39,757 bases of DNA. Origin: a virus. The notes under the pieces were generated by a model that made no database searches, was not told the DNA's origin, and saw nothing but the letters and a program-made list of their open reading frames with translations. The stretch lies in the IMG/VR virus record IMGVR_UViG_3300022933_000001, positions 1 through 39,757 of that record; one strand, 5' to 3'. Position numbers and translations under genes: made by a program. This document shows positions 1 to 39,757 of the stretch, piece after piece. Positions within the stretch are counted from its first letter, which is position 1, and each line of letters opens with the position of its first letter.

Positions 1-127
1 CAAAGTCAAACCTTGTAGCGGCTATAAACGAATTAGATAGCGACATGGAGACAGTCGAGAATACGGTGGACTCCCATACGGCAGCAATCCCTGCTAACTT
101 ATCTACAAGATTGTCTGCGCTAGAAGC
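1..127. repeat. contig-end overlap, copy 1 (identical to 39631-39757)
   Basis: Direct base-by-base comparison of both ends. Confidence 0.97.
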
Positions 128-434
128 GAACGCCCCTAAAGCATTCGGTAGATTCACTACAGTAGCCTCCCCTGTCTTACTAGGTACAAGTTACAACGTA
201 ACATCAGTAACTCGTACAGCTACAGGTCAATACTCAGTAGTGTTAGATACAGACTGTACTACAGCCAACTACACAGTTATGCTTTCCTACGAGGATTCAA
301 CTGCTACTATCCAAACTGTAATGGCTAACACCATTGCTACCACAGGATTCAACATTGGGCTACGAGATTCGTCTAACGCTTTCTCTGACGCTTCGGAATC
401 CGTATCCTTTTCTATATTCGAGAACAACGGCTAA
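1..434 (+). CDS. tail fibre protein, C-terminal part (continuation of the ORF that leaves the window at 39757)
   Basis: The frame with codons starting at base 3 is open from base 1. It is the same frame as 37245..39757 once the 127-bp end overlap is collapsed. Stop TAA is at 432-434. The ATG at 45 in the ORF track is an internal Met. Confidence 0.85.
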   Translation, partial: KSNLVAAINELDSDMETVENTVDSHTAAIPANLSTRLSALEANAPKAFGRFTTVASPVLLGTSYNVTSVTRTATGQYSVVLDTDCTTANYTVMLSYEDSTATIQTVMANTIATTGFNIGLRDSSNAFSDASESVSFSIFENNG

Positions 435-2818: not shown

Positions 2819-4743
2819 TAGTGAGTCTCAGCCCAATTGTTTCCTAGTTTATACTCACCGTCCATCGGACAATGAATGTTGAATTGTTTCCCTGCGTGTA
2901 TCATTGCTGACACCGCAAGCTGTCCGACTCGTTCAGCTTGGTCTTCTCTGACCTCTAGCTGTACTTCGTCGTGGACATGGAGTACTAGCTTAGCATCTAA
3001 TCCCTCCGTGTCAATAGCTTCCATTAGATTAACTGTAGCTTGCTTCATAAGGATTGCTCCTGTTGATTGCATCAGCAGGTTCAGAGCTGAGTGTTCAGAG
3101 CGTACAGGTAGCTTCCTGCCATCTAAACCTCGCAACCACCCACGCTTCTTAGCCACGCCCTTCACCTCTTTGATGAGGTTGTTAAGGGCAGGCAGAGCCC
3201 TTAGAAATCTACCTCGCAAGGCACGTCCTGCTCCCTCACCACGCTCTACTATCTCACCTATCTTTGCATTACCTGCCCCATATAGGAAGGCGTAGATGAA
3301 AGTCTTAGCTTGGTCACGGGTATCTAAACCTGCCGCCCATTGGTTGAGAGTATGGATGTCACCTGATAGTATCTCATTGACATACTCACCCTCATCCCAA
3401 TCATACATATAGTGAGCGAGGCATCGTAACTCTAAGCCGCTCATATCTGCACCCACCATCTTGTAACCTTTCGGTACATCGAAGACAGACCGACAGGCTT
3501 CTCCGAACTCAACACGCACCGCAGGTACTTGACTCATGTTAGGCGTGTTGTGAGTACACCTACCTGATAGCGCACCGTTGTGGTTAATACGTCCGTGCAT
3601 ACGTCCCCCTTTCTCTAGCTTCAACCATGCGTTATCTCCCTCAGCTATCTGACCTATGCGCTTGCATAGCATCATGTATCTAGCGATGAGGATAGCTTCG
3701 GGGTAATCTAAACCATTGAGTATTTCCTCGTCCACGCGGGGCTTACCTGTTGGGGAGTACTCTGTAGGTATCCACTTATGCTTCTTTATGAAAGCTTCAG
3801 CTATCTGCTGTCGGCTATTAGGATTAAAATGTTTCTCCTTAGTCTTCAGAGGTCCTGCTGTTAGAGCCTGTCTGATGTTGTAAGGGGCTTCGCTCTTAAT
3901 CCTATACTTGTTTCCCTCAGCGTCAAGCCAATAAGCTACCGTCTTAGTCTCAATAGTCTCAGGAGGAAACACCTTTGCAATTTCCTTTAAGACCTTATCC
4001 TTCTCACCTAAGAGTGTGCCGTAAAGAGAGGCACAGGATTCTGTATTGAAACCTACCCCGTTGCGTTCCATCTGCGCTAACGCAGTAGCAAACTTATGCT
4101 CTAGGTCTAGACTACGCTTGGTCATCTCCTCCCCCTCTAGCTTGTGGGCTAGGTGAAGAGTGACGATGGTATCTTGTATACAATACTCGCCCATCTCTAG
4201 GGAGTACTCCGTCCAATCAGTATCCTCATGGCTGAACTCTCCCTTCAGAGAGCCGAGCCTATAGCCCCAAGCCTTGAGGGAGTGAGAGCCACGATACTTC
4301 TTAGGTATCCTCTCAGCCATGTAGTCTGTATCCATCAGGTTAGGGAAAGCCATACGACTCATCACTAAGGTATCTCGCACCCTAGCCTGTGTCTTCCAAT
4401 TAGGATACAGCTTCTTTATCACAGGGATGTCAAAGCCTATGATGTTATGCCCTACAATAGTCTCTGCATTAGAGAGGTGGTGTAGTGCCATAGGTATGTC
4501 ATCCTGTGCGAATAAGGAAGAGTCTCCGTTCGGTGTTGTTAGTGAGATGCAATGTATCTTAGTACACTCATCTAGTAATCCATCAGTCTCCATGTCGAAG
4601 ATGAAGGTATCTTTTGTTTGTTCTTTTAATTGTCCCATTGTTTCTATTAGGTCAGGTCTTGGTTGTTTGTAATCCATGAGGTCCATCTTAAAATTAGGAC
4701 GAAACCTCTTATGAGTATCGCGGAGCATTAGGGTTATGTTCAT
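2818..4743 (-). CDS. family A DNA polymerase with 3'-5' exonuclease domain (T7 gp5-like, 641 aa)
   Basis: Exo motifs FDMETDGL, HNIIGFDIPV and YCIQDT. Pol motifs DMSGLELRCLAH (A), RDQAKTFIYAFLYGAG (B) and HVHDEVQ (C). Confidence 0.95.
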   Translation of the reverse strand: MNITLMLRDTHKRFRPNFKMDLMDYKQPRPDLIETMGQLKEQTKDTFIFDMETDGLLDECTKIHCISLTTPNGDSSLFAQDDIPMALHHLSNAETIVGHNIIGFDIPVIKKLYPNWKTQARVRDTLVMSRMAFPNLMDTDYMAERIPKKYRGSHSLKAWGYRLGSLKGEFSHEDTDWTEYSLEMGEYCIQDTIVTLHLAHKLEGEEMTKRSLDLEHKFATALAQMERNGVGFNTESCASLYGTLLGEKDKVLKEIAKVFPPETIETKTVAYWLDAEGNKYRIKSEAPYNIRQALTAGPLKTKEKHFNPNSRQQIAEAFIKKHKWIPTEYSPTGKPRVDEEILNGLDYPEAILIARYMMLCKRIGQIAEGDNAWLKLEKGGRMHGRINHNGALSGRCTHNTPNMSQVPAVRVEFGEACRSVFDVPKGYKMVGADMSGLELRCLAHYMYDWDEGEYVNEILSGDIHTLNQWAAGLDTRDQAKTFIYAFLYGAGNAKIGEIVERGEGAGRALRGRFLRALPALNNLIKEVKGVAKKRGWLRGLDGRKLPVRSEHSALNLLMQSTGAILMKQATVNLMEAIDTEGLDAKLVLHVHDEVQLEVREDQAERVGQLAVSAMIHAGKQFNIHCPMDGEYKLGNNWAETH

Positions 4744-6377
4744 CGTGCGTAAGCCGCCTTCTCTTTATTGATGAGGGATACCGAAGCTGTCTCCTTCAGT
4801 CTCCCTGTTTCTTTGTTGTACTTAAGGGTGCAGTTTATCCCTGTCTCCCCTGAGTATCTGTTCTTCAGTACCCTAACGGTAGTTACGTCAGCCTCATCTT
4901 CAGACTGTTGGTCACGTTCAAAGCCTATAACTAAGTCACTGAGTTGCCCAAGGCTTGCGCTTCCCCTAAGTTGAGCCAAGCTAGTCTTCGCTCCTTCTTC
5001 GTGCGCCTTACCTTCGGGTCGTTTGAGATGCGACACGAGGATGAGAGCTATGCCTAGTTCCTCTACAAGAGAGCGGAGCTTGGTCATTATGTTGTCAATG
5101 CGCCTACGCTCATCACCATCTTCATACCCTGATACCATGATAGATATGTGGTCAAGGAATACATACTCTACGTCGAGAGCCTTCACCATGTATCTTATCT
5201 TACCTAGTAGGTGGTCGGAGTCCATCGAACCGAAGTGGTCATACAGTACACAGTTACCTGTACCCATCGTAGCTTGGAATGCCTCGTGTAATCTCTCCAT
5301 CCCTACATCAGTACCATGTATATGAATAGGTAGGTTGAGTGAGATACCCATAATGCCCTTAGCAGTACGCGCCACGCTCTCTTCGAGTGCGATGTAGCCT
5401 ACCTTCTTGTCATTGATTATCAGGTGGTGTGCTACCTCTCGGCAGATGCTAGACTTGCCGATGCCTGTGCCTGATGTGAGCGTGACTAACTCACCCTTGC
5501 GGATGCCGTAAGTCTTATCGTTCAACCCTGCCCATGGATACGGGAAGGATTCTGAATCGTCCACCTCTGACACCTGTTCCCATAGGTCTTCACCTAAGAC
5601 AACACCATCAGGTCTGAAAGGTTTAGCACCCCATTGGGCTGACACTAGCTCACTACCTCGACCTGCCACTAACATCTCGTTAGCGTCCTTCAAGGGTAGC
5701 GTAGCTATCTTAGCCTTACCTACTGAGAGCATAAGGCTACACTTCTCCGCCGCCTCGCGTCCTGCTTGGTCGTTATCAAACATGAACACTACAGACTCGA
5801 ATGTCTCTAGCCACTCAAGGCTACGAGCCACAGCTTTATGCGCACCCTGCGCACCGTTAGGCACGGAGACTACAGCCCACTTGTTGCCTGTCTGTTGGCT
5901 GACTGATAGAGCATCTATCTCTCCCTCAGTTACGGTGACCATCTTGCCACCACCTCGCCATAGGTGTTCACCATACAGCCCCATCTTCTTGGAGTTGCCT
6001 AGTATCTGAAAGGATTTGTCAGGCATCCGTAGCTTCTGTGCTATCGGTACACCTGCATCGTTGCGGTACGTCGCTACCTGCATAGGCTTACCATGATGTA
6101 GTGTTACACCATAGTCCCATTTCTTACAGGTCTCTTCGTTTAGCCCACGGTTAGGTATGGCTTGGTATTCTCTGTCTATTAAAGACTTAGAGACTTCGGG
6201 TTGCTTCTCAGAAGCTACTCCTGATTCTTGCTCGTGGTAACTACAGCTAAAGCAGTAGCCATGCCCGTCATCATATCTTGCAAGAGCGTCTGAGGATTCG
6301 CAACTTGGGCAGGCTTCATGTCCTGTAAAGTTACTGTCTGAATCAAGACGTGAGTTGTTGGTGTTGTTGTTGTCCAT
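4740..6377 (-). CDS. bifunctional primase-helicase (T7 gp4-like, 545 aa)
   Basis: Cys4 zinc ribbon CPSCESSD..GYCFSC. TOPRIM motifs VTEGEIDALS and FDNDQAG. SF4 helicase Walker A SGTGIGKSS, Walker B VFLDHIS, plus LRGSASLGQ. Confidence 0.95.
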   Translation of the reverse strand: MDNNNTNNSRLDSDSNFTGHEACPSCESSDALARYDDGHGYCFSCSYHEQESGVASEKQPEVSKSLIDREYQAIPNRGLNEETCKKWDYGVTLHHGKPMQVATYRNDAGVPIAQKLRMPDKSFQILGNSKKMGLYGEHLWRGGGKMVTVTEGEIDALSVSQQTGNKWAVVSVPNGAQGAHKAVARSLEWLETFESVVFMFDNDQAGREAAEKCSLMLSVGKAKIATLPLKDANEMLVAGRGSELVSAQWGAKPFRPDGVVLGEDLWEQVSEVDDSESFPYPWAGLNDKTYGIRKGELVTLTSGTGIGKSSICREVAHHLIINDKKVGYIALEESVARTAKGIMGISLNLPIHIHGTDVGMERLHEAFQATMGTGNCVLYDHFGSMDSDHLLGKIRYMVKALDVEYVFLDHISIMVSGYEDGDERRRIDNIMTKLRSLVEELGIALILVSHLKRPEGKAHEEGAKTSLAQLRGSASLGQLSDLVIGFERDQQSEDEADVTTVRVLKNRYSGETGINCTLKYNKETGRLKETASVSLINKEKAAYAR

Positions 6378-7577: not shown

Positions 7578-9950
7578 CTAGTGAAAGAAGTATAAGGACT
7601 TTGTTAGTTGGTTAATGTCTAATGTTCCTGTTGAAAGAAACGGAAGACGTTCGTTGTGGGTATCAGGATATGATTGCCTGATGTCCCTGTCAAATGAAAT
7701 CTGAAGATTATTTTGAAAAGTATCAATCACTACTTCTCGCAACCCCTCAGCTAGGGCAGGACAATCACTCGCATGTGTTGCGAATGAGTCATGCACCATG
7801 GCTAGTGAGTTGATACCCTTAGATTTCATAAGGTTAGTTGTCGTGAGCATGATGCTCGCGTCAAGTGAGTGGATGTAGTTAGGCACGATACCCTTGAGGT
7901 TGTTACGCCTTGAGAGTTTATCGAGAGGGTCACGGTAGTGCGCTTCCTTCCTTATGTTCGAGCCTATTGCTGTGACTACACGACGGCGCACCGTCTGTTT
8001 ATATCCTTGATGCACAGTCATACCTATCGGTGTTGTCCATGATATAACATTGTCTGCATATAAGGCGGGGCGTATCGTGTCCTTCAACCAAGACATTAAC
8101 TCTAATGCTCTCGGCATAAGCTCAGCGATTACACCCCATGTTACCGATGCTAATATCTTACTGTATGTACGCAACTGTTTCTGCATACTCTGTGGTGTTT
8201 CCCCCTCTATGAACCGAGTGTATAGAGTATCTTGGAATAATTGAATCATCGTATAGTACGATGCCCCGTAAGGTACTGACATCACAGCCCGCTTCATTAA
8301 GGCACGGTCAATGCCATACCTCAACAGTCTCAGGTTCTGCTTGTTTGGGTCAGCCTTCAGCCTCCTTGTCACCTCGTCTGCTACCTCTTGGTATATATCA
8401 GCAGGACTACCTAACGGTGTGCAGTTAGTAGCCTCGCCTATGTCCTCATCGCGTATCATTAAAGACATAAGCTGTAGCCCGTTATTACTTCCGTCCATCG
8501 CACAAGGTATGTGTGATAAGAAGTTAGGATTCTCTAGCCACTCAGCAAACTCGAAGCACCACGCTAGGAATTGGAAAGGCTTATCTGCCTCAGCCCAATG
8601 CAGGTAGTCTAATGGGTTGGTCGCGTTCTTCTTTAACGACTCTTGCATCCCTAGCATCTTATCTACCCGACGCTTGTAAGAACCCTTGATGCCCCATAGG
8701 TTTGCGCCGTGTATCAAGAACCACTTGCTACCTTCACCTTGAAAGGTCTTACCCTCTACGAAGTGAAGCAATCCCTTAGCGATGTCATCACCTTGAGGAT
8801 TGAATACCTTCGGTATCGGGTAGGCTCTACCTCTAAAGTCTAAGCTATGTGGGAAGTATATTGCACTTTCCCCTGAAAATTTTTCAGCAGTTTTTATACA
8901 CTCATTTAGCCTGAACCTCCGACCTACATTTAGGTTGTTGGTTGCTCGTACTCTCTGAAGATTTCGGAAGTAATACCCCCTCTCCTTGTCTGTGAAGTCA
9001 GCACTAAACACAGGCTCTGCTAGGAAGTCGCAATTAGGCAAGCCTGCGATGGTGGATTGTTCTTTCCACAGTTGCTTCATCACGTCAAGAACCTTAGTGT
9101 TCACCGCCCAAGCCGTTGATTGTAGTGCGTTCACCCCATCGAATACGGCGGGGCAGTCATCGTAAGTCAGGTCGTCATAGTGGTTACCTTCCTTCGCGTT
9201 AATGAAACCCTTAGTCTGAAACTCCCTAAGTGTGTAGCCTCCTGTGAAGTTGTCCACCCAATCATTAGGTGGTACAACCATTGGCTCATATAACATACCT
9301 CGTGTTGCATCTCTCTTGTAACTTTCCTCTAGCCACTCCTTCATGTCGGGCGTGGGTGCAACAAGACCGATGCGTTTACCGTTCAACACCCGATGGTACA
9401 GGACAATCATTCCTGTATGTTTCTGCATCAACATCAAGGCTGTCATACCTATAGAGATTAAGTCTCCTTTATCCCACCAACGATTGATAATGCCTGCTCG
9501 TCGAGCTTCCCGAAGTATTATCTGTTCCGTGTTTCTATCATTCTCGTGTTTGTTCTCTATCACCTTAGTGCGGAACAGGTCGATGTGATTCTCCTTGAAC
9601 TTCTGTAGTTGATACTCTTGCTGTATCGCTCTACCTATAGCACCTGCGAGTGCCGTGCGCTTACGCTTACGACTAATGCCATCGAGTACCGCCCTTGCTA
9701 TCACCGTGGCTGTAAGCTCAGGCGTAAGCAGTCTGAAGAAAGGCTTAACTTTCTTACCTACCCCTGCACCCTCACCGTCAAGCCAATCAACGATACCTAA
9801 AGACAGAGGTACGATTGCTCTTGATAGCGCGATGCTACCTGTTGCAGTCGTAGTCTCTTGCTCTTTAGCTACACGTTTAGCGTTGCGCTTCGTGCGTCGA
9901 GAAGCACCCGCGATGAGTGCTTCCCGTTCTTGTTCATGTTGCTTAGACAT
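7578..9950 (-). CDS. single-subunit DNA-directed RNA polymerase (T7 gp1-like, ~790 aa)
   Basis: Catalytic motifs MDGSNNGLQ (T7 D537 region) and MVHDSFATH (T7 D812 region). The start is uncertain. ATG 9950 (MSKQHEQ) overlaps the upstream stop by 8 nt. The track start at 9974 is a TTG. Confidence 0.93.
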   Translation of the reverse strand: MSKQHEQEREALIAGASRRTKRNAKRVAKEQETTTATGSIALSRAIVPLSLGIVDWLDGEGAGVGKKVKPFFRLLTPELTATVIARAVLDGISRKRKRTALAGAIGRAIQQEYQLQKFKENHIDLFRTKVIENKHENDRNTEQIILREARRAGIINRWWDKGDLISIGMTALMLMQKHTGMIVLYHRVLNGKRIGLVAPTPDMKEWLEESYKRDATRGMLYEPMVVPPNDWVDNFTGGYTLREFQTKGFINAKEGNHYDDLTYDDCPAVFDGVNALQSTAWAVNTKVLDVMKQLWKEQSTIAGLPNCDFLAEPVFSADFTDKERGYYFRNLQRVRATNNLNVGRRFRLNECIKTAEKFSGESAIYFPHSLDFRGRAYPIPKVFNPQGDDIAKGLLHFVEGKTFQGEGSKWFLIHGANLWGIKGSYKRRVDKMLGMQESLKKNATNPLDYLHWAEADKPFQFLAWCFEFAEWLENPNFLSHIPCAMDGSNNGLQLMSLMIRDEDIGEATNCTPLGSPADIYQEVADEVTRRLKADPNKQNLRLLRYGIDRALMKRAVMSVPYGASYYTMIQLFQDTLYTRFIEGETPQSMQKQLRTYSKILASVTWGVIAELMPRALELMSWLKDTIRPALYADNVISWTTPIGMTVHQGYKQTVRRRVVTAIGSNIRKEAHYRDPLDKLSRRNNLKGIVPNYIHSLDASIMLTTTNLMKSKGINSLAMVHDSFATHASDCPALAEGLREVVIDTFQNNLQISFDRDIRQSYPDTHNERLPFLSTGTLDINQLTKSLYFFH

Positions 9951-10287
9951 TTGATGTGTTCCAAACGTATGCAATCTCTGTGCGCATCATACGTCCTAAC
10001 GTCGATAGCTGTACTAGCTTGCGACGCTTATCCGCAGGGTCGATGACACATTGAATTAAACCTGCACACTCACCGCCTCGTGGGTGGTCATCATCTGAAC
10101 CTAGCAATCGTAGGTATCGTATGATTGAGCCGTGGCTAACACCCACCATATCCATCAGCTCTTTCACAAGCAAAGGGTTAGGGTCGTGTTCCATAACGTG
10201 CAGTAGTAGCGAGACACCTTGAGTCTCCAAGTCTCCACCTGCATACCGACGTATGATGTCGAAGGTCTTAGTTAGATTCTGCATCAT
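9943..10287 (-). CDS. MarR-like winged-helix transcriptional regulator (114 aa)
   Basis: HTH segment LVKELMDMVGVSHGSIIRYLRLL followed by the wing signature GLIQCVIDPADKRRKLVQLSTLG, matching the MarR pattern Glv.r..dp.DrR...v.LT..G. Confidence 0.7.
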   Translation of the reverse strand: MMQNLTKTFDIIRRYAGGDLETQGVSLLLHVMEHDPNPLLVKELMDMVGVSHGSIIRYLRLLGSDDDHPRGGECAGLIQCVIDPADKRRKLVQLSTLGRMMRTEIAYVWNTSNV

Positions 10288-12692: not shown

Positions 12693-12762
12693 TTGTTTAA
12701 TCTCCTGCCTTACGGCGGTTAGTGAATAGGAAGTTACGTTCTCCCTTAAAGTGTGAGAGCTA

Positions 12763-12791
12763 AGCTTAGCCTAGCCCTCGTTGTTTGTCAA
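12763..12791 (-). promoter_or_regulatory. sigma70-like promoter (TTGACA-17-TAAGCT) upstream of the 269-aa gene
   Basis: Minus-strand read: TCTTGACAaacaacgagggctaggcTAAGCT. Confidence 0.55.
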
Positions 12792-12816
12792 GACATTTAT
12801 CTTGAAAGTTTTGTGT

Positions 12817-12834
12817 GAATTATAATGCCCCCTC
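12817..12834. promoter_or_regulatory. GGGCATTATAA motif copy D (reads on the - strand)
   Basis: The reverse complement is GGGGGCATTATAATTCAC. It overlaps the stop of the 79-aa gene, just upstream of the 12763-12791 promoter. Confidence 0.35.
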
Positions 12835-13059
12835 TTTCAGTAGGTTCAAGTGTATCTCTACTACTTGGTCGATGGTGTAGTCTGTACAGTACTTACCTTT
12901 ACCTCGACCACAATCGTAGTGGTATACTATACCTCTAGATACTAGCTTCTCCATGCGACGCTTCGCCTTAGCCCATGAGTTAGGCTTGTAGAATTTAGAT
13001 TGACAGAATCCTATTCGTATCAATTGTTCCTCGTGTTCTGCGTTGTACTTTCGTGGCAT
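12820..13059 (-). CDS. small basic early protein (79 aa)
   Basis: ATG ORF with 1-nt overlap with the upstream gene. Lys/Arg-rich (AKAKRRMEKL, GRGKGK). Confidence 0.6.
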   Translation of the reverse strand: MPRKYNAEHEEQLIRIGFCQSKFYKPNSWAKAKRRMEKLVSRGIVYHYDCGRGKGKYCTDYTIDQVVEIHLNLLKEGAL

Positions 13060-13448: not shown

Positions 13449-13505
13449 TTTATTGTTGTATGTTGTATAGCCTTACCGTGCCTTAGTGTTAAGTGTTGAG
13501 GGCTT

Positions 13506-13534
13506 AGTATAAACTAGCCCCCTTTAGTTGTCAA
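13506..13534 (-). promoter_or_regulatory. sigma70-like promoter (TTGACA-17-TATACT) upstream of the 129-aa gene
   Basis: Minus-strand read: TCTTGACAactaaagggggctagttTATACT. Confidence 0.65.
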
Positions 13535-13557
13535 GATATATATCTTGTTTATTTTTT

Positions 13558-14054: not shown

Positions 14055-14608
14055 GTGTACCTCCTGAGTACTTGGTTAATTGTGGAAGGCTTAACGTTTT
14101 CACGGCGCGGTTGCCTATCTTCCGCGCGACAATCGGGGCGGTGTTTGGTCTTTAGACCCTACTGCACTACCCCTTAATTGTTTCTATTTTCACAATTTGA
14201 TATACCGCTAGAATCAACGCTTGCCGAGAGCGTCCGTCCTTAGCGGTTAGCTTTATGGTACACGGCATAGACCGAATCTCTGTACTAGGACTTAATCAGT
14301 CCTAAGGGTCCTAGCGCTATCGCTTCCCTCTACCCTAACCTTTGGGGTCTGCTTGGTTTACCATGATTTTGTTCTTTATCCTTAGTCCGTTTTAGCCTGC
14401 CGTCCTGCACGGAGTATCAGAGGTTCATTCGATATTTTTAGCGGTTCGGCTCTAGCCTACCTCTTGCTAATGGGGTTCTCGCAAAAGCTTGCCCTATCGA
14501 GGAACATGATATTTTACTTTAACGTTTTCAGTTACAGCTTAGTTTCACTTATTCCTAGCGTCTCGTTCTTCCTAATTGTTAATGAGCTTCTGTCTTTCTC
14601 TTGCCCCT

Positions 14609-14637
14609 ATCCTATCCCCGCCCTCTTGCTTTGTCAA
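14609..14637 (-). promoter_or_regulatory. sigma70-like early promoter (TTGACA-17-TAGGAT)
   Basis: Minus-strand read: cCTTGACAaagcaagagggcggggaTAGGAT. It lies about 550 nt upstream of the first early gene. Confidence 0.5.
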
Positions 14638-14793
14638 GGGTATTTAGTTAAAACTTTTTAGGGGTCTAGCGTATGGCAGGGTCGGTTTTATCCGAATGCC
14701 TAGTGGCTAGTCCGTCCTAGATGTTTCACGTGGAACACTTGACTTAGCAGGGCGAGAATTTGAAAGAGCTATGAGGTTGGGTTATCCCTTTCT

Positions 14794-14822
14794 CATACCC
14801 CTATTCTATCATGACTTGTCAA
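14794..14822 (-). promoter_or_regulatory. possible additional early promoter (good -35, poor -10)
   Basis: Minus-strand TCTTGACAAG is present, but no convincing -10 lies at 16-18 nt. Confidence 0.25.
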
Positions 14823-14851
14823 GAGTGCAACCCCTAAAATCAAGGTATTTT

Positions 14852-14871
14852 AAATAGGGCATTATAATTCC
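14852..14871. promoter_or_regulatory. GGGCATTATAA motif copy A (candidate phage-RNAP promoter or operator)
   Basis: AAATAGGGCATTATAATTCC. The core is quasi-palindromic. Confidence 0.4.
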
Positions 14872-14881
14872 AAATAGCTAG

Positions 14882-14901
14882 AAATAGTGCATTATAAGTG
14901 C
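14882..14901. promoter_or_regulatory. GGGCATTATAA motif copy B
   Basis: AAATAGTGCATTATAAGTGC, exactly 30 bp after copy A. Confidence 0.4.
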
Positions 14902-15146
14902 ATAGCCTATCTCGCACACAATCGAGTACAGGGCAGTCGTAAGTACAGTCAGACAAAGGACTTAGGACGATTGACGTAAGTCTAGTGTTTACAAGGGGTT
15001 AGGACTGAATCTGCGTTCGTCCTTAATGTGGGTACTCAGTAGGGTTACGCGTCAAGGCTCTTAGAACGGCTCTAAATGCCCTTAGAGCGCAAGCGTAACC
15101 CTAGTGCCTGTAACGACTTAGGACGGCTAAAACAGAGGACGCAGGA

Positions 15147-15306
15147 GGGCAGGGCAGGCTACTGTTGAGACTCAATCTCATTAAGAGTCGAGACAATGAC
15201 TGTTGAGACCTAGTCTCATTAAGACACCCCCGCCTGCCTGCCTGTACTCTTGAGACTCAATCTCATTAAGGCAAGAGCCGTGTTGTTGCGACAGAGTCTC
15301 AACAAG
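15147..15306. repeat. cluster of four hairpin-forming repeat units flanked by GC-rich complementary arms
   Basis: Direct units CTGTTGAGACTCAATCTCATTAAG (15162-15185), CTGTTGAGACCTAGTCTCATTAAG (15200-15223) and CTCTTGAGACTCAATCTCATTAAG (15247-15270). One inverted degenerate unit lies at 15282-15306. The arms are GGGCAGGGCAGGC (15147-15159) and CGCCTGCCTGCCTG (15231-15244). Confidence 0.85.
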
Positions 15307-15500
15307 ACCCTGCGGGGCTACCCCTATGGGGGGAACGGCGCGTTCCATCCATATATATACCCGCTCACATTTTTCTGCAATTTTTGGCGGTCACTCCATA
15401 CCCTTTAGGAAAACAAAACAAACCCGATGGGAACCCACTAGCTCCAAGGTATTTCCCTGTGAGCGAGGCGGGGAGCGAGAATAACTCTCAGCTCATGGAG

Positions 15501-15520
15501 GGACTTATAATGCCCAATAG
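15501..15520. promoter_or_regulatory. GGGCATTATAA motif copy C (reads on the - strand)
   Basis: The reverse complement is CTATTGGGCATTATAAGTCC. It lies about 250 nt downstream of the terL stop. Confidence 0.4.
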
Positions 15521-15768
15521 ATTCTGTGAAACGAAGTATATTTCCTCATAATCACATTACCTTTTTACTTTTTCTTTAGGGGAGGTGGTGGGAGGATTAC
15601 TCTAAGGTACTATAGAGTACCTACTACCTACTTCCTTTTCTCCCCTAACAGGGAACTAAGGGGCTGTAGTGACTCTCTATTATACTTAGAGAACTCTGTC
15701 TACCGCGCATATGGTCTAGCGTACCACACTTTTTTGTCTTCTCTAGAGGAAGGGAAGAAATATTTTTC

Positions 15769-17433
15769 TTACATCCATGAGGACTTGTTATTGGTATATC
15801 CAACAGCATTCTCCATGAACTTATCTAGCTCTATCTGTAGTCTTTCAGCCTTATCTTCCTGCATACGCTCTTCTACGTCTTGCCCTACAGCTTCTACCCA
15901 ATAGTGAGCTGCCATAGACATAACTTCTAACCTGTCGTCGTGAGCTAATGCTCCTCTAGCTGTGGTTATTCTTGTGAGTTGGTGGAAGAGCCTATACTGA
16001 GGAGCTTTCTCAGGAGGTAGGTGCCTAGTAGAGCTATAATCATTCTCGATTACTTCAGGAGATATAACGATTCTGTGTTGATTTAATAGAGGTTCTAAGG
16101 TCTCAATGATTCGCCGCTCCTTCTGAGTGGAGTGTCGTACCTCAGAGAGGGTGACAGGGTATATCTTCTTAAGGTATGGTGTGAGTAGTTCATTGAACAT
16201 ACCATCGCCGAAGTTAGATTCCACCTGTATCTCTTTGACCTTGTACTTCTTCGCTAGTTCTGCTAGAGCAGTCAGGGTTTCCGTAGAGTATCCCCCCGCT
16301 ACCCCTGAGCATTCGTGGACATACAGGAAACCGTTGAGCATCGACATGATACAGTAACCTGTTTCGTCACTACCACGACCTGAAGGGTCGATGGTCATTA
16401 CAGTACCACGGTATGGTATAAAGTCACCATCAACAGCGAGGGGTCTATAGAAGTAGTCCCCGCTAAAACCGACAGATGGTAGGTCCTTTATGACCCTCTC
16501 AGCACTATTGGAGTGTATGACACGCTCAGGTGCTACCTCAAGGTCTATCTCCATAACAATGAAGTCCTGTAGCTTGAGAGGATACCTATTAGCATCCGAC
16601 AAGCTAGGGTCAAGCATGAATTGCAACGCAAAGCCTGAACGACCATAGGATAGCTCACGTTCCACTAGGTCATCCTCATCGAAACGCTTAGGGTCTACAG
16701 GTTCCCCCTCTAATGACGGGTCCTCTGTAATCTTATCGAGGATATAAGGGGCTAAGTGAGAACCGTATGCGGCTACTTTGTCGCTTTTGGGATATCTTCC
16801 TGTCCACACACGAGGTATGTAACCCCTAGCAGGTAAGACTTTGTATAAAGACATCTCTGTTTGGTACGTCCCTAGATACCTTACCTGTCCATTAGGCTTG
16901 AGAATGGAGTCAAATTCCTTCACGAGGTTACCTAACTTGTCCCTCATGCCCTGAGTTTCGCTATTATTTAGGGACTCCACGTCGTCTGCCACAATCAGGT
17001 CCGCACGAGAACCTGTTAGCTGTCCTGTGATTCCGACCGCCTTCACAGAGGGGGCGTGTGCCGCAGGGGCAGGACCAACATCGAAGGCTATCTTGGAATC
17101 TCTCTGCTCAGGTCTAGCCTTCAGATGCTCCAATATTGGCATCTCATTGATTAGACGTTGAGTGAAGGTAGAGAAGTCATCCGAGCGGTTCTTAGATGCT
17201 GACACCACTAGGATGTTTAGAGATGGGTCTAGTAACAGCCGCCAACAGACGTAGGCAGAGGTTAGGTATGACTTACCTACACCGCGGTACGCAAGAATGA
17301 TTTGTCTTCGGGGTCCGTCCTGTAGATATTCAGATATATCATACTGTACAGGCGTAGGCTCGGGGAGACCTAAATGCTCCCATGCCATGTATACGAAATT
17401 CCTAAAGTCCCTCAGCTCTTTAGGGATTTCCAT
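15769..17433 (-). CDS. terL: terminase large subunit (T7 gp19-like, 554 aa)
   Basis: Walker A-like YRGVGKSY, Walker B LIVADDVES, and a C-terminal nuclease region with acidic motifs. The size is typical. Confidence 0.93.
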   Translation of the reverse strand: MEIPKELRDFRNFVYMAWEHLGLPEPTPVQYDISEYLQDGPRRQIILAYRGVGKSYLTSAYVCWRLLLDPSLNILVVSASKNRSDDFSTFTQRLINEMPILEHLKARPEQRDSKIAFDVGPAPAAHAPSVKAVGITGQLTGSRADLIVADDVESLNNSETQGMRDKLGNLVKEFDSILKPNGQVRYLGTYQTEMSLYKVLPARGYIPRVWTGRYPKSDKVAAYGSHLAPYILDKITEDPSLEGEPVDPKRFDEDDLVERELSYGRSGFALQFMLDPSLSDANRYPLKLQDFIVMEIDLEVAPERVIHSNSAERVIKDLPSVGFSGDYFYRPLAVDGDFIPYRGTVMTIDPSGRGSDETGYCIMSMLNGFLYVHECSGVAGGYSTETLTALAELAKKYKVKEIQVESNFGDGMFNELLTPYLKKIYPVTLSEVRHSTQKERRIIETLEPLLNQHRIVISPEVIENDYSSTRHLPPEKAPQYRLFHQLTRITTARGALAHDDRLEVMSMAAHYWVEAVGQDVEERMQEDKAERLQIELDKFMENAVGYTNNKSSWM

Positions 17434-17651
17434 TATGCTTCTTTAGCTTCTGTGAAGGGAAGAGCCTTAACTAAGTTTAGCATAGGTTTACTCTCTTCCA
17501 CTACTACAGTCACATCGTTATCCTTCAAGAACTTAACAGCTACAGAGATTTCAGCCGACGTTGCTTCGCCTGAAGCAATGCGGTCTAAAAGCTCGGAGGC
17601 TACGTCTACATGAAGTTTTTCTAAAAGGGACTTGATATCGGGGTTACTCAT
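17433..17651 (-). CDS. terS: terminase small subunit candidate (T7 gp18-like, 72 aa)
   Basis: Internal ATG 17651 gives MSNPDIKSLLEKLHVDVASELLDRI.... The stop overlaps the terL ATG (TAATG). The longer track ORF from 17789 runs antisense into the neighbouring gene and is rejected. Confidence 0.55.
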   Translation of the reverse strand: MSNPDIKSLLEKLHVDVASELLDRIASGEATSAEISVAVKFLKDNDVTVVVEESKPMLNLVKALPFTEAKEA

Positions 17652-17660
17652 AGTTATAAT
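17632..17660 (+). promoter_or_regulatory. near-consensus sigma70-like promoter facing the late (+) operon (TTGATA-17-TATAAT)
   Basis: Plus-strand read: cTTGATAtcggggttactcatagtTATAAT. The -35 lies inside the terS coding start. The -10 lies in the 55-bp divergent intergenic region. Confidence 0.5.
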
Positions 17661-17706
17661 GTGCGAACTACACCCCTGTAGTATACCACAACTCAATCGA
17701 ATCTCT

Positions 17707-37024: not shown

Positions 37025-37245
37025 TGACTACCCACGACCAAGACTTACTCGTAGCTATCGGCAGACTCGAAGGCAAGATGGATGCTTTGATAGCTATCAC
37101 CAACGCTCACAATGAGATGATTCAGAAACATGATGAACGTCTTCGTGAGTTAGAGACTTCACGCTCTGCCCTGATAGGTGCAGTAGCTATCCTTTCCACA
37201 GCAATTAGTGCCGCCGTAGCGTGGCTCTCAGCAAACTCAGTATAA
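37024..37245 (+). CDS. small coiled-coil protein with C-terminal transmembrane segment (73 aa)
   Basis: Start and stop overlap the flanking genes (TAATG at both ends). The C-terminus is LIGAVAILSTAISAAVAWL. Confidence 0.55.
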   Translation: MTTHDQDLLVAIGRLEGKMDALIAITNAHNEMIQKHDERLRELETSRSALIGAVAILSTAISAAVAWLSANSV

Positions 37246-39757
37246 TGCCATACGATAGACATGATAATGAAAAGATAGACCGTAAGGTTATGGACTGTAG
37301 AGCCAAACTTGGAGGTACTAATATTGTTGTAGGTGGGAACACTGATGCTATAGCTATAAACAAAACTAAGCTAGACCTAATGACGGTAACACAGGCTGTG
37401 AACCTTGATGACATGGAGTCTGACATAGGAGCGGTTAGCGGTTTAACAACCGATGAAAAAGATAATCTAGTAGGGGCTGTAAATGAGCTAGACACTAACA
37501 CTAATGACTGTCAAGCAGATGCTACTAACGCCTCGACTTTTGCAACTACTGCCCTCCTTGCTATAGGAACTACGAGTAATCTCCCAAACCCCCCTGCATC
37601 GCTAGTCGAGGAGATAAATACCCTAGACGTAGCAGTAGATTCAAACACAACTAAATTAGATGGTATTGAAGCAAGTGCAACTGCTGACCAAACAGACGCT
37701 GAAATTAGAACTGCAGTAGAAGCTGCAACTGATTCAAACGTGTTCACTGATGCTGACCATACTAAACTAAATGCTATTGAAGCAGGTGCTGATGTGACAG
37801 ACTCAACAAATGTTGTAGCTGCTTTAACAGCAGGAGAGAATGTAACTATATCTGCAGGTGGAACTATAGCTTCCACAGATACAGACACAACTTATTCATC
37901 TAGTGATTTTACACATGATGACTTAATAGGTTTTGTAGCTGATGAACATATAGATTGGACAGGTGCTTCAGCAGGAACTATCCACTCTTCTAACTATACT
38001 GATACAGATACAACTTATACAAGTTCAAATTTTACACATGATGACTTAACAGGTTTTGTAGCTGATAAACATATTGATTGGACATTAACTAACATTAAGA
38101 ATATCCACTCTTCTAACTATACTGATACAGTTTATGACTCAACTGATATTGATGCAGCAGTAGATTTAAACACAGCAAAGGTAACCTATCCTTCTGCTGA
38201 CTCTACTAAGGTGGGGTATATCAGCGTTACGGAAGCTATAAACTTAGATACCTTACGCGATGACGTAGATAGTAATGATGCAGATATTGCAACTAATGTT
38301 ACGAATATCAGCAGTAACGCTGCAGACATTCTCACGCTACAAGGTAACGTAAATAGCAACGATGCAGATATTGCAAATAATGTTACGAATATCAGCAATA
38401 ACGATGCAGACATAGCCGCCTTACAGTCTGCTGTAACTAGCAACGATGCAGATATTGCAAATAATGTTACGAATATCAGCAATAACGATGCAGACATAGC
38501 CGCCTTACAGTCTGCTGTAACTAGCAACGATACAGATATTGCAACTAATGTTACAAACATAACTACCAACTCCGATGCCATCGGAACACTTTCATCATTA
38601 GCCACGAGTGCTAAAACCAACTTAGTGGGGGCGGTTAATGAGCTACATACAGAATTAGGTAGCGAGACAACAACGTCCTTAGTTTTATCTGGTAACATCC
38701 TCACGTTTACTAATCAGGATGGTGTAACGAACACTATATCCTTAGCCCACTACTTAGATGACACAGACACAAATACCTTTGTGTCGTCAGGGTCGGTAAA
38801 TAGCGCAGGGCTAGTCACTTTCATTATGAGCGACGCTTCGACATTTACAGTAAACTTAGAGTCTTTATTAGACACTACAGTTACTGTAGTTGATAACTTG
38901 ATAAGTACGAGTACCGTAGATGCTTTGAGTGCTGGTAGGGGCAAGGTATTAAAGGATGGTCTTGATACTCTCACCACCACTAAAGTAGCTACATCGTCTA
39001 ACCAAGCGTTAGTTTCCGCAACTGATGCTATGACTATTAGTGACCATACTATTACTTTAAATAGAGCAGATGGAACTACGGACACAGTTACAGTTCCTGA
39101 TAATGACACCACTTATACGGTAGGCGATGGTGGGCTAACTGAAATTAACTTTACGTCAGCGGATAATACTAAACTAGACGGTATAGCAGCAGGTGCTACA
39201 GTAGACCAAAGTGCTGCAGAAATAAAAACTCTTTTAGAGGATGGGATTAATAGTGTTCATTATGTAGATGGAAGTATAGATACTATTCACATAGGTGATG
39301 ACCAAGTAACAGTAGACAAACTGGCGAACTCAATCAATACAACTATAGCCGCCAATACAGCTAAAGACACTAACGTCACAACCGATTTAAGCGTAAGCAG
39401 AGATGGAACCAAGTTGGTTGTAGTTTCGAGTGATGGAGCAAACGCAACACTACCCCTAGTTGATACAAATAATTGGGGTGTGATGTCGGATGAAATGTTC
39501 GACGAGCATACAACCAATAATGCTAAGACAGGCATTTCGCCTGTACAGGCAGCAGCTATTACAAATAATACTACTGCTATAAGTGGTAACGATACAGACA
39601 TAGGAACACTCGCTAGTTTAACGACTACAACAAAGTCAAACCTTGTAGCGGCTATAAACGAATTAGATAGCGACATGGAGACAGTCGAGAATACGGTGGA
39701 CTCCCATACGGCAGCAATCCCTGCTAACTTATCTACAAGATTGTCTGCGCTAGAAGC
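37245..39757 (+). CDS. tail fibre protein, N-terminal 837 codons (ORF continues through the circular junction to 434; ~939 aa in total)
   Basis: My manual translation from ATG 37245 shows no stop up to the window end. The motifs NLVGAVNEL and TKLDGIEAGA recur, and internal tandem repeats are present. The ORF is absent from the track because it has no stop inside the window. Confidence 0.85.
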   Translation, partial: MPYDRHDNEKIDRKVMDCRAKLGGTNIVVGGNTDAIAINKTKLDLMTVTQAVNLDDMESDIGAVSGLTTDEKDNLVGAVNELDTNTNDCQADATNASTFATTALLAIGTTSNLPNPPASLVEEINTLDVAVDSNTTKLDGIEASATADQTDAEIRTAVEAATDSNVFTDADHTKLNAIEAGADVTDSTNVVAALTAGENVTISAGGTIASTDTDTTYSSSDFTHDDLIGFVADEHIDWTGASAGTIHSSNYTDTDTTYTSSNFTHDDLTGFVADKHIDWTLTNIKNIHSSNYTDTVYDSTDIDAAVDLNTAKVTYPSADSTKVGYISVTEAINLDTLRDDVDSNDADIATNVTNISSNAADILTLQGNVNSNDADIANNVTNISNNDADIAALQSAVTSNDADIANNVTNISNNDADIAALQSAVTSNDTDIATNVTNITTNSDAIGTLSSLATSAKTNLVGAVNELHTELGSETTTSLVLSGNILTFTNQDGVTNTISLAHYLDDTDTNTFVSSGSVNSAGLVTFIMSDASTFTVNLESLLDTTVTVVDNLISTSTVDALSAGRGKVLKDGLDTLTTTKVATSSNQALVSATDAMTISDHTITLNRADGTTDTVTVPDNDTTYTVGDGGLTEINFTSADNTKLDGIAAGATVDQSAAEIKTLLEDGINSVHYVDGSIDTIHIGDDQVTVDKLANSINTTIAANTAKDTNVTTDLSVSRDGTKLVVVSSDGANATLPLVDTNNWGVMSDEMFDEHTTNNAKTGISPVQAAAITNNTTAISGNDTDIGTLASLTTTTKSNLVAAINELDSDMETVENTVDSHTAAIPANLSTRLSALE
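37875..38120 (+). repeat. 123-bp (41-codon) tandem duplication inside the fibre gene
   Basis: TDTDTTYSSSDFTHDDLIGFVADEHIDWT...IHSSNY is followed by TDTDTTYTSSNFTHDDLTGFVADKHIDWT...IHSSNY. Confidence 0.85.
38271..38522 (+). repeat. 84-bp (28-codon) tandem repeat x3 inside the fibre gene; units 2 and 3 are identical
   Basis: Units lie at 38271-38354 (diverged), 38355-38438 and 38439-38522 (identical). A further degenerate unit follows. They encode SNDADIANNVTNISNNDADIAALQSAVT. Confidence 0.9.
39631..39757. repeat. contig-end overlap, copy 2 (identical to 1-127)
   Basis: Direct base-by-base comparison of both ends. Confidence 0.97.

Follow-up and report, generated by a model that had tools for sequence, protein, structure and literature searches.

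The window, as we call the whole 39,757-nucleotide stretch of DNA analyzed here, represents a circularly assembled marine T7-like phage from an uncultured clade, with a structural module that is inverted relative to that of T7. It encodes a single-subunit RNA polymerase of 798 amino acids (7578..9974, minus strand; Pfam RNA_pol, E 3e-76) that shares no more than 32% identity with the catalogued phage polymerases. The start of this gene is overlapped by 32 nt by the end of a gene for a 114-amino-acid MarR-fold winged-helix protein (9943..10287, minus strand; phrog_9665, E 1e-10). A non-coding gap of 1714 nt carries a T7-like terminal-repeat signature and gave no match in a DNA search against catalogued phages. 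The signature lies at 15321..15368 on the minus strand and consists of GTGAGCGGGTATATATATG followed by GTTCCCCCCATAGGGG, the T7 counterpart being GTTCCCCCATAGGGGG at nt 23-38, and 27 marine T7-like contigs contain this junction element. The presumed terminal repeat includes four 26-nt tandem repeats resembling TTGAGACTCAATCTCATTAAG (15160..15306, plus strand), each relative having a repeat unit of its own at this place. The break of contig X1 falls elsewhere, within coding tandem repeats at approximately 38.0-38.5 kb.

Four copies of a short quasi-palindromic word are present in this genome, three of them (A, B, and C) within the non-coding gap. Copy A (14852..14871, plus strand; AAATAGGGCATTATAATTCC) has the core GGGCATTATAATTCC at 14857-14871 and a dyad center at 14864/14865. 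Copy B (14882..14901, plus strand; AAATAGTGCATTATAAGTGC, core GTGCATTATAAGTGC) follows in tandem, exactly 30 bp from A. Copy C (15501..15520, minus strand; CTATTGGGCATTATAAGTCC) is located ~250 nt past the terL stop codon and ~130 nt before the conserved junction element, whose position would place the physical genome end between C and the A/B pair. Copy D (12815..12834, minus strand; GAGGGGGCATTATAATTCAC) overlaps the last codons (..EGAL*) of an open reading frame at 12820-13059 and is a probable but less certain member of the family. The 13-mer GGGCATTATAAKT occurs exactly at 12818-12830 (minus), 14857-14869 (plus), and 15503-15515 (minus), and with one mismatch at 14887-14899 (plus). All four copies had been reported in a preliminary description of the sequence, in which A, B, C, and the A/B spacing were given exactly; the 18-mer reported for D, GGGGGCATTATAATTCAC, is also real but sits at 12815-12832 on the minus strand, two nucleotides away from the 12817-12834 quoted for it. 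The weaker matches mentioned there, located here at 5346-5358, 26893-26900, and 37241-37248, are inside genes and at chance level.

Each site is a quasi-palindrome of 15-16 bp with the form G.GCATTA|TAATYC.C, in which GNG and CC parts are separated by about one helical turn on either side of an AT-rich center. Among 14 sites from four lineages, the two left-hand G positions are occupied by G in 13 and 12 sites and their respective mirror positions on the right by C in 7-9 and 11, all of these being columns that played no part in locating the sites. The palindrome is imperfect, the left C being non-complementary to the Y at its mirror position, and the left flank is AT-rich and AWTAG-like, as in T7-group promoters. 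The ambiguity of orientation pointed out previously is genuine: ATTATAAT is self-complementary, and the 18-nt arms of A and C are 89% complementary.

Recurrence of the word is, by itself, weak evidence. Six matches with at most two mismatches were found against 1.63 expected, a number reached in none of 100 shuffles; this test was made post hoc on a pre-chosen pattern. A de novo count of 13-mer families at no more than one mismatch returned four members for 13 seeds and five for one seed, and unrelated 12-mer triples also occur in the genome (e.g., codons for EWLE); four-member families are thus common here, and recurrence alone is not exceptional. The unusual part is the presence of three members inside the non-coding gap: a three-member family arose in just 10 of 1000 dinucleotide-shuffled versions of the gap. 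Conservation among relatives, described below, strengthens the case.

A scan for sigma-70-type promoters called none on any of the four TATAA cores, in agreement with the earlier remark that no copy has a usable -35. Several such promoters are predicted nearby. A putative promoter P1 (TTGCAC-16-TAGAAT; 14803..14830, minus strand), read from the sequence, faces the early genes; it matches the consensus at 8 of 12 positions in the window, a weak call, and at 10 of 12 in the relative L092 (TTGCTA-16-TATAAT). On the same strand are TTGACA-17-TAGGAT (14609..14637), with a consensus -35, and TTGACA-17-TAAGCT (12763..12791), downstream of D, and there are further early sigma-70-type promoters at 13534, 11496, and 2336. 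The early promoters other than P1 score 9-11 out of 12, all with TTGACA or TTGATA. Measured from the predicted starts, A and B are centered at -68.5 and -98.5 relative to P1 and D at -66.5 relative to the promoter at 12791; copy C is near no predicted sigma-70 promoter. In lineage L294 the cluster of sites is ~650 nt from the first strong promoter, which indicates that a fixed promoter geometry is not conserved, and some sites in L291 and L294 overlap promoter-like hexamers. An argument from the helical phase of A, D, and the second L093 site relative to -35 hexamers was dropped, as it depends on which hexamer is chosen as the -35. A related sequence just before the terS start codon (CATTATAA; 17654..17661, minus strand), site E, was not counted in the family. 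On the plus strand it forms the -10 of TTGATA-17-TATAAT (17632-17660; 11 of 12), which faces the structural genes, and its position is kept in all lineages. Contigs of a low-depth metatranscriptome (X8) show RNA, or DNA carry-over, across 14354-14720, downstream of P1; in this single data set no contig covered A, B, C, or D.

Clusters of the word were identified in the terminal regions of four related lineages, including L093, L291, and L294, always in terminal non-coding DNA 40-450 nt from the conserved junction signature. All three matches in the 18 kb of L291 fall within ~80 bp. Tandem spacing is 30 bp in the window, L003, and L294 (s3/s4), 31 bp in L291 (1/2) and L294 (s1/s2), and 34 bp in L093, or approximately three helical turns. 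Sites s2 and s3 of L294 are arranged head-to-head with centers 16 bp apart, and the same composite is found in L291. In the window, A and B are directed away from the early genes, whereas the homologous tandem pair of L093 and the three L291 sites point towards them.

The individual copies differ in how well they are retained. Copy A is identical in L001, L003, L084, and L092, and lies inside an invariant 56-nt block (14828-14883) shared by the window, L001, and L003, with flanks of ~80% identity. At the place of B, L001, L003, and L092 have GCGCACTATAAACGC, with five changes in 21 nt. Copy C is present only in the window and L092, its place being taken by AT(T/C)GGGTCTAATAGTCCC in L001, L002, L003, L089, and L090. 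The 16-19 nt of D end three unrelated open reading frames in the window, L002, and L003; in the latter two the counterpart supplies a TAATG stop/start overlap, and conservation of D may be partly owed to a Shine–Dalgarno/TAATG gene-junction role.

Other relatives lack the word over the stretches examined. No [GA]CATTATA was found in ~26 kb of the L285/L007/L304 lineage, and no sites in 16-22 kb of L002/L086 and L005/L305, their terminal regions included. Likewise, L004, L005, and L007 have no analogous motif pair flanking the terminal repeat, and none of 78 more distant marine relatives has a conserved ATTGGGCA-like element after terL. An IMG/VR scan for tandem GCATTATA-N16-32-GCATTATA returned more than 117 unrelated matches and none related to the window phage; among these matches the only look-alike, in the unrelated 58-kb phage L182, was rejected as a tandem duplication of 32 bp.

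The preliminary description had named a MarR-like protein as a possible binder, and the MarR assignment is confirmed by the predicted fold. Pfam MarR_2 falls below its cutoff for the 114-amino-acid protein; the AlphaFold2 model has a pLDDT of 91 and its top Foldseek matches are PcaV, MarR, MepR, and SlyA, the best 50 of 1,047 matches (E up to 1e-3) all being MarR-family proteins. The protein is 95-98% conserved in close relatives, and no other DNA-binding regulator was recognized among the early genes scanned. Its recognition helix, VGVSHGS(I/V)IRYLRLLG, is found in every motif-bearing lineage for which sequence is available, and the motif-free L285/L007/L304 lineage carries a diverged helix, VRVTQGSVARYLRLLG (TQGSVA). 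The comparison covers very few independent lineages, and the SHGSII helix is also present in two site-free genomes (L002 and L305). Further helix variants, VTHGSII, SHSSAS, and TQPSVI, occur within the clade. The occurrence of the same helix without sites in L002/L086 and L005/L305 means that the sites are not the only or essential targets of the regulator. A perfect palindrome with two copies in L285 and L007, GCTCTATAGAGC, was at first taken as the operator of the diverged helix; it was rejected as part of a hairpin element (TAGTAGGC...GCAAG), located before the first early gene in all lineages, that is probably an RNA feature.

On the basis of sequence comparison, we tentatively interpret the copies as operator-like sites for a dimeric DNA-binding protein, the prime candidate being the phage's own MarR-fold regulator, whose gene is translationally coupled to that of the RNA polymerase; we put this at a little short of an even chance. 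The genome encodes a MarR-family protein, and the sites agree with the pseudopalindromic form expected of its operators (~16-20 bp, half-sites one turn apart). GNG and CC elements about one helical turn apart around an AT-rich center are the geometry used by MarR-family dimers. Promoter and operator had been considered equally possible. The comparative data fit an operator better, in the symmetry of the sites, their free orientation, the head-to-head pairs, the 30-34-bp spacing, and the accompanying recognition helix, with the MarR-fold protein standing as a candidate binder.

The alternative that the phage single-subunit RNA polymerase uses the sites as promoters, in a low-copy class like that of Syn5, seems to us unlikely. 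Copy C would then act as a right-end promoter directed into the terminal repeat, D as one preceding the polymerase and replication genes, and A/B as a left-end tandem pair for replication priming or concatemer processing. The likeness to SP6 and K11 promoters noted previously is real: CAYTATA followed by A aligns with -7..+1 of T7, SP6, and K11 promoters without gaps, so that the spacing shorter by 2 nt postulated earlier is not needed. The sites have the T7-group form (AT-rich -17..-13, CAYTATA, purine at +1), with C at -7 in 13 of the 14 sites, A at +1 in 10, and five pre-core positions rich in A, G, and T, the TATA columns being partly fixed by how the sites were found. In L003 the variant of copy B is CACTATA exactly. 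The window polymerase has R, V, R, and E at the positions of T7 R746, N748, R756, and Q758, and C at -7 fits the conserved arginine at the R746 position (PMC11880802). Copy C also shares 11 nt (TCTATTGGGCA), plus TAAG, with the Syn5 promoter at 44797, 6 nt past the Syn5 terL stop; against the 15-nt ATTGGGCACCCGTAA it matches at 8 contiguous positions with three flanking bases and TAAG, and is 1 nt shorter. Syn5-like phages have only two promoters per genome, and we found no other recurrent non-coding motif able to serve as a phage promoter in the window, a search that covered k-mer repeats, repeats across the genome, and the gaps preceding primase genes having yielded nothing convincing. Against this, the Syn5 and T7 registers are 2 nt apart, so that at most one of the two resemblances can reflect homology. 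With GGGCA at -12..-8, as in the Syn5/K11 register, +1 is a pyrimidine in 13 of the 14 sites. Of the bases at -8 to -11, which in a promoter should be invariant within a genome, one varies: the would-be -9 (-11 if read in the Syn5/K11 register) is G in A and C but T in B, and G, T, C, and A in 4, 5, 2, and 3 of all sites, respectively. Nor do the sites follow the polymerase. The same motif accompanies three specificity-loop sets, RVRE (window), RTRN (L291), and RVTN (L294), while the RVRE lineage L285 has no copy in ~26 kb, and relatives with identical specificity and AT-rich loops have GGGTCTAATAG in place of C or a diverged copy of B, or, in the case of L002, none of A, B, and C; there is neither co-variation with the loop nor retention where the loop is kept. 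The sites do not point along the genes they would serve, their orientation being opposite between lineages and some being head-to-head 16 bp apart. Of the copies, only A/B could serve the plus-strand structural genes, by transcription that traverses the genome end and 2 kb of terL in antisense, and these genes are already preceded by a sigma-70-type promoter. The comparison of A/B with the promoter pair of the T7 primary origin is not supported, as A/B adjoin the terminal-repeat region and not the polymerase gene. A very unlikely hybrid would have composite promoters in which the MarR-fold protein is a specificity or recruitment factor for the phage polymerase; it would explain the T7-like appearance (CAYTATA|A) together with the dyad, and why the motif seems to follow the MarR helix while the polymerase loop drifts. 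In a related variant, outward- and inward-facing phage polymerase promoters would flank the terminal repeat for concatemer processing or end replication instead of gene expression.

Recognition by another protein acting at the genome end, be it from the host (a nucleoid protein or transcription factor recruited to the DNA that enters first) or from the phage (a protein of replication, packaging, or end protection), with the MarR-fold protein unrelated, appears unlikely. It would account for clusters that are always in the terminal non-coding region and whose presence varies among close relatives that keep the MarR gene, for the inverted orientation in which A/B and C flank the presumed terminal repeat, and for the ~30-bp spacing, typical of cooperative arrays; however, D is 2 kb inside the early region and no further DNA-binding protein was recognized in the early genes. 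In a comparison by eye, no convincing fit was seen to the consensus sequences of Fis, Lrp, ArgR, Fur, CRP, CtrA, or IHF. We regard as distinctly unlikely that the sites are host sigma-70 elements, that is, a -10 (TATAAT) with a GC-rich discriminator (TATAATGCNC) serving as early promoters without a -35 or as polymerase-capture or pause sites at the end that enters the cell. Nearly every site does have a perfect TATAAT on one strand or both, and in the TATAAT direction the 10-mer conserved best is TATAATGC(A/C/G)C; s2 and s3 of L294 form TGAACA-17-TATAAT (10 of 12), site E is truly the -10 of its promoter, and T7 carries A0, a host promoter directed leftward that adjoins its left terminal repeat. 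However, A-D have neither a -35 at 16-18 bp nor a TGn extension, the TATAAT strand of C and D points away from genes, and conservation of G.G and C.C outside the hexamer would be left unexplained. That the copies have no common function, A/B having arisen by tandem duplication in place and C and D representing fortuitous matches or a cassette at gene junctions, is most improbable. This would suit the abundance of four-member 13-mer families and of 18-24-nt imperfect repeats in the genome, the explanation of D by its junction role, and the confinement of C to two genomes, but conflicts with the rarity of three members in the shuffled gap, the independent clusters of L093, L291, and L294, and the location of A in an invariant block.

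A close known counterpart of the MarR-fold protein is pMarR (PSSP7_011) of the marine T7-like cyanophage P-SSP7, a MarR-family dimer that is expressed early and whose gene lies immediately ahead of the RNA polymerase gene region; the window protein is 27% identical to it over 83 residues (E 9e-6). P-SSP7 pMarR binds several sites and contacts the alpha subunit of host RNA polymerase (PMC9692554). Its characterized target is a host promoter (rne), with the site downstream of the start, and operator arrays on a phage genome have not been reported for this protein. The window protein differs from pMarR in a conserved DDHPRGGEC insert. P-SSP7 has an integrase gene between its MarR and polymerase genes, whereas these genes overlap in the window and no integrase was found among the window open reading frames scanned. 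In LUZ100 a MarR-like gene (gp10; 28% identity, E 4e-8) is likewise upstream of the polymerase gene, and LUZ100 terL is among the closer catalogued relatives of the window terL (56%). MarR sites near promoters have been proposed for temperate T7-like phages, where they would control the switch to RNA polymerase-dependent transcription (PMC10134795). The model of Boeckman et al., as cited there, has sites that flank the promoter directly upstream of the polymerase gene and serve lysogeny, with an integrase (PMC10134795), as opposed to the genome terminus and a position 2.8 kb upstream of the polymerase gene in the window.

Compared with mapped phage promoters, the window sites show both likenesses and differences. 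The numerous promoters of LUZ100 (ATTACCACACAGGTATGGA) have been mapped, and no phage promoter was identified in the window. The Syn5 promoter (ATTGGGCACCCGTAA|G), also mapped experimentally, occurs in few copies per genome, of which one follows terL closely near the right end. It is not palindromic, unlike the window sites, and copy C has one base fewer between GGGCA and TAAG. The Syn5 and window polymerases are only 25-28% identical and have E/K/R/K and R/V/R/E, respectively, at the specificity positions, and the Syn5-like site is not conserved in the window's close relatives, including those with the same polymerase loop. T7-group promoters (T7, T3, SP6, and K11) share the CAYTATA core and AT-rich upstream part, and T7 phiOL and phiOR resemble the window sites in flanking the concatemer junction close to the terminal repeat. 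T7, however, has 17 promoters, all directed along genes and invariant at -7..-11, as against four copies of mixed orientation with one variable specificity position.

In the operator reading, the regulator, made from early transcripts, would bind the sites and modulate transcription by the host sigma-70 RNA polymerase. The sites, single or arrayed with 16- or 30-34-bp spacing, are in non-coding DNA next to the terminal repeat, at the genome end that enters the cell first, with one more (D) in front of an early promoter. The positions of A and D, ~66-68 bp upstream of the predicted starts of sub-consensus promoters, would be those of a class-I activator and are compatible with the contact between the P-SSP7 MarR protein and polymerase alpha, while the L291 and L294 sites that overlap promoter-like hexamers would repress. 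The sites, their symmetry and distribution, the protein fold, and the lack of agreement with the phage polymerase are observed, whereas the identity of the binder and the sign of regulation are inferred.

The repeated word more probably marks binding sites of the MarR-type regulator than promoters of the phage polymerase, which would make it a fairly ordinary regulatory feature in an unusual phage. Comparative tests on the sequences argue against labeling it a phage promoter, and annotators should be cautious, as a repeated TATA-containing word near the ends of T7-like genomes easily receives that label. MarR-type regulators are widespread in marine and temperate T7-like phages, and their phage-borne targets have so far only been hypothesized. 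If our reading is true, GNGCATTATAAKYCC would be a concrete operator sequence for such a regulator, whose action would bear on host-polymerase transcription of the DNA that enters the cell first.

The repeated near-palindromic word in this marine T7-like phage is a real feature. All four copies quoted in the preliminary description are present, A (14852-14871) and B (14882-14901) on the + strand and C (15501-15520) and D on the - strand; the sequence of D was also correct, but its position is shifted by 2 nt, to 12815-12832. It is the concentration of the copies, rather than their recurrence, that is unusual. An unbiased count found four-member 13-mer families to be common in the window (13 seeds give a family of four and one a family of five), several 12-mers of unrelated sequence are present three times, imperfect 18-24-nt repeats are also frequent, and a post-hoc pattern test gave 6 matches against 1.6 expected. 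Three family members in 1714 non-coding bases, however, arose in just 10 of 1000 dinucleotide shuffles. Comparison with related viral contigs (L numbers) supports the reality of the feature. Copy A lies inside a 56-nt block that L001 and L003 share with the window without a change, with flanks ~80% identical, and its 20-nt core is kept in L092 despite different flanks. In L093, whose terL is 83% identical, the region homologous to B/A carries two copies spaced 34 bp apart, and the terminal non-coding regions of L291 and L294 hold clusters of three copies (the only three [GA]CATTATA in 18 kb of L291) and four sites, respectively, each within 80 bp. A 32-bp tandem duplication with TTGGTGCATTATAAGACAC was also seen in a divergent intergenic region of an unrelated 58-kb viral contig (L182, reverse strand, 3495-3560).

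Positions 1-127 of the window exactly repeat 39631-39757 (127 bp), and the window is therefore a circular assembly of ~39.63 kb, with contig ends inside a gene and away from the phage termini. It encodes a T7-type single-subunit RNA polymerase (9974..7578, -), T7-type small and large terminase subunits (terS, terL; 17652..15769, -), and a T7-type primase/helicase and family-A DNA polymerase. Among catalogued phages, no polymerase exceeds 32% identity to the RNA polymerase and no terminase exceeds 59% identity to the terminase, for which roseophages and LUZ100 are nearest; the sequence was found in seawater metagenomes. With the portal-to-tail module on the + strand (17.7-37.2 kb) and terS/terL on the - strand, the 15769-37245 region has its structural module inverted relative to T7 gene order, a layout common to L285, L291 and L005. 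In-frame tandem repeats of 84 and 123 nt occur in - strand ORFs at the genome end (37626-38560, 39159-39607) that look like tail fibers, and the Logan contig of sequencing run X1 breaks within the 84-nt repeat region (~38009-38501). ORFs 45..434 (+) and 39287..39676 (-) start back-to-back on one ATG/CAT (window 44-47), and at least one of these starts is probably wrong.

The terL stop and the first early gene are separated by 1.7 kb (14055-15768) in which the strand coding for the flanking genes lacks any ORF of at least 50 aa. Along the - strand, the first feature of this stretch is a conserved element, AAAAATGTGAGCGGGTATATATATG; next comes GTTCCCCCCATAGGGG, a match to GTTCCCCCATAGGGGG at nt 23-38 of T7's terminal repeat, and then four 26-nt tandem repeats. 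All relatives share the junction signature, as do 27 marine T7-like contigs (27 IMG/VR loci, L310...L421), and AAAAATnTGAGnGGGTATATATA followed 15-25 nt on by CCCCC(A/G)TGG is kept 3' of terL in many marine T7-like lineages (window 15321-15368, -). The signature, similar to those T7 nucleotides, is probably a concatemer-junction or terminus signal, and would place the physical genome end, collapsed in assembly, at ~15340-15370 and thus between copy C and copies A and B. At the left end, TGTACTCGATTGTGTGCGAG (14911-14930, -; two copies in L092) is more strongly conserved than any other block of that region and may mark where the terminal repeat ends on its inner side; L002 departs from the window a few bases past it, and TGTACTCGAATCTA is present in two copies in L291. 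Closely upstream of the first early gene, every lineage has a hairpin with the loop (A/G)TAGTAGG(C/G)...TA.AG.GCAAG (window 14135-14173, -; L285 5862-5960; L291 4990-5030; L305 3185-3225), often with GATTGTC on its 3' side, which may serve for RNase III-type processing or as an RNA element of the leader. A 367-nt contig from a seawater metatranscriptome (run X8) matches 14354-14720 of the non-coding early leader at 100%, at a depth close to that of terS/terL contigs. Unless due to DNA carry-over, the contig is evidence of RNA from the leader downstream of P1, a putative sigma-70-type promoter facing the early genes (14803-14830, -).

Fourteen sites from four lineages were aligned, with the columns fixed by the search set apart. 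Directly 5' of CATTATA are G (13/14), any base and G (12/14), and on the 3' side A (10/14), T/K, Y, C (11/14) and C (9/14); the 5' flank is A/T-rich, frequently AWTAG. The G.G and C.C columns make the site a quasi-palindrome of the halves G.GCATTA and TAATYC.C, with a single systematic non-complementary pair (C versus Y), and fully symmetric copies are found in L002 and L003 (GCATTATAATGC), L093 (GTGCATTATAATGTAC) and L294 (GGGATTATAATTCCC). Such quasi-dyad symmetry, together with free orientation and arrays at 16 and 30-34 bp, would be expected of a dimeric winged-helix protein. The most probable reading, though somewhat short of an even chance, is that the copies form an operator-type array to which a dimeric regulator would bind, with the phage MarR-fold protein as prime candidate; binding by another end-binding protein, the nearest rival, is unlikely.

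The candidate regulator is encoded by ORF 10287..9943, which overlaps the polymerase gene start. It has a match to a transcriptional-regulator PHROG and a weak one, below cutoff, to Pfam MarR_2. Its AlphaFold2 model (pLDDT 91) has MarR topology, with PcaV, MarR, MepR, MftR and SlyA as best PDB matches. The protein shares 27-28% identity with P-SSP7 pMarR and LUZ100 gp10; among close relatives it is 95-98% conserved, against a polymerase identity of only 78%. All motif-bearing lineages with the gene available have the recognition helix VGVSHGS(I/V)IRYLRLLG, and a lineage with the helix VRVTQGSVARYLRLLG has no sites; yet L002 and L005/L305 have the same VGVSHGS helix and no sites, and with few independent lineages the association is only circumstantial. 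Measured from the starts predicted for two sigma-70-type promoters of sub-consensus sequence, A, B and D have their centers at ~-68, -98 and -66, distances that would fit the contact reported between pMarR and the polymerase alpha subunit (PMC9692554), and some L291 and L294 sites overlap promoter-like hexamers, so that either sign of regulation could apply. An insert between recognition helix and wing, DDHPRGG(E/K/Q)C (residues 65-74), is present in 17/17 MarR-like homologs, only HPRGG..C being strictly invariant, and is a possible metal or ligand site; for comparison, binding by pMarR is Ca2+-stimulated, and the window protein carries the insert as DDHPRGGEC. In LUZ100 (L307), ACTATCCAC occurs at 376, 577, 3939, 3995 and 6965; it is found within the spacers of the host promoters P1 and P2 of that phage, as well as twice upstream of phi1 and the RNAP gene, and may be the phage's MarR site or a plain part of its promoter architecture.

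The preliminary description also proposed promoters for the phage single-subunit RNA polymerase, a reading that is possible but disfavored, ranking below an end-binding protein. CAYTATA then A aligns to -7 to +1 of the T7, SP6 and K11 promoters without a gap, removing the 2-nt shorter spacing once thought to separate the sites from SP6/K11-class promoters. C at -7 is the partner of the T7 R746 equivalent in 91% of T7-like polymerase/promoter pairs (PMC11880802), and arginine is kept at this position in all lineages. Copy C shares TCTATTGGGCA...TAAG with the Syn5 promoter mapped 6 nt past the Syn5 terL stop (PMC3950665), and low copy number is no objection because genomes of Syn5-like phages carry just two promoters. 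However, close relatives with identical specificity loop and AT-rich recognition loop have AT(T/C)GGGTCTAATAGTCC in place of C and five changes in B, one genome (L002/L086) lacking A, B and C altogether, and in the L285/L007/L304 lineage, which shares the loop RRRVVTAIGSKIRKEA with the window, [GA]CATTATA is absent from ~26 kb of terminal, early and replication regions. The motif accompanies other residues at T7 positions 746/748/756/758 (RTRN in L291, RVTN in L294, RVRE in the window). The would-be -9 base (-11 in the Syn5/K11 register) varies between copies of one genome, and the Syn5 and T7 registers are 2 nt apart, so the two resemblances cannot both be equivalent contacts. Orientation varies too, A and B facing away from the early genes whereas the homologous L093 pair and the L291 sites face them, and L294 and L291 each have two sites head-to-head, centers 16 bp apart. 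The + strand structural genes lie beyond reach of every copy and are already preceded by an 11/12 sigma-70-type promoter with its -10, 'CATTATAA', directly before terS.

Bare host -10 elements are less likely than phage-polymerase promoters and, in our view, rather improbable. Every site has TATAAT on at least one strand, and TATAATGCNC is well conserved when so read, but A-D have no -35, as described earlier, and no TGn extension, whereas the early promoters of this phage (14637, 13534, 12791, 11496 and 2336) carry TTGACA or TTGATA at a spacing of 16-17 bp. Repeated promoter cassettes, in which a small stem-loop CAAGATAnATnTCTTG runs into TTGACA-17-TAnnnT and then GGGCTAG, lie at boundaries of differing gene content among relatives (window 13500-13545 and 12760-12805, -; L002 9130-9180 and 9940-9990) and recall the mobile promoter-stem-loop cassettes known from T4-type phages. 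An extended -10, TGGTATACT (17680-17688, -), ~20 nt upstream of the terS ATG and kept in L004/L093 and L291, probably belongs to a terS-terL promoter divergent from the structural-gene promoter.

Copy D has a second aspect, as the same 16-19 nt, A[A/C]AGAGGGGGCATTATAA, form the last codons (..EGAL-stop) of three unrelated small ORFs in window/L002 and L003 (window 12815-12834; L003 10720-10745 and 10917-10945; L002 9680-9705). A D-like sequence supplies the Shine-Dalgarno and TAATG stop/start of an inserted gene in L002 and L003, and two D-like copies flank a 66-aa gene in L003. The shared ORF-end codons and the TAATG role make D a conserved module-boundary cassette, and its sequence looks like a recombination or module-exchange junction; that D is also a binding site is uncertain.

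MarR-type regulators with sites near promoters have already been described or proposed in T7-like phages (PMC9692554, PMC10134795). If the operator reading is true, the array would be a further example of a MarR-regulator system, and what is new would be a defined candidate site and its unusual terminal location.
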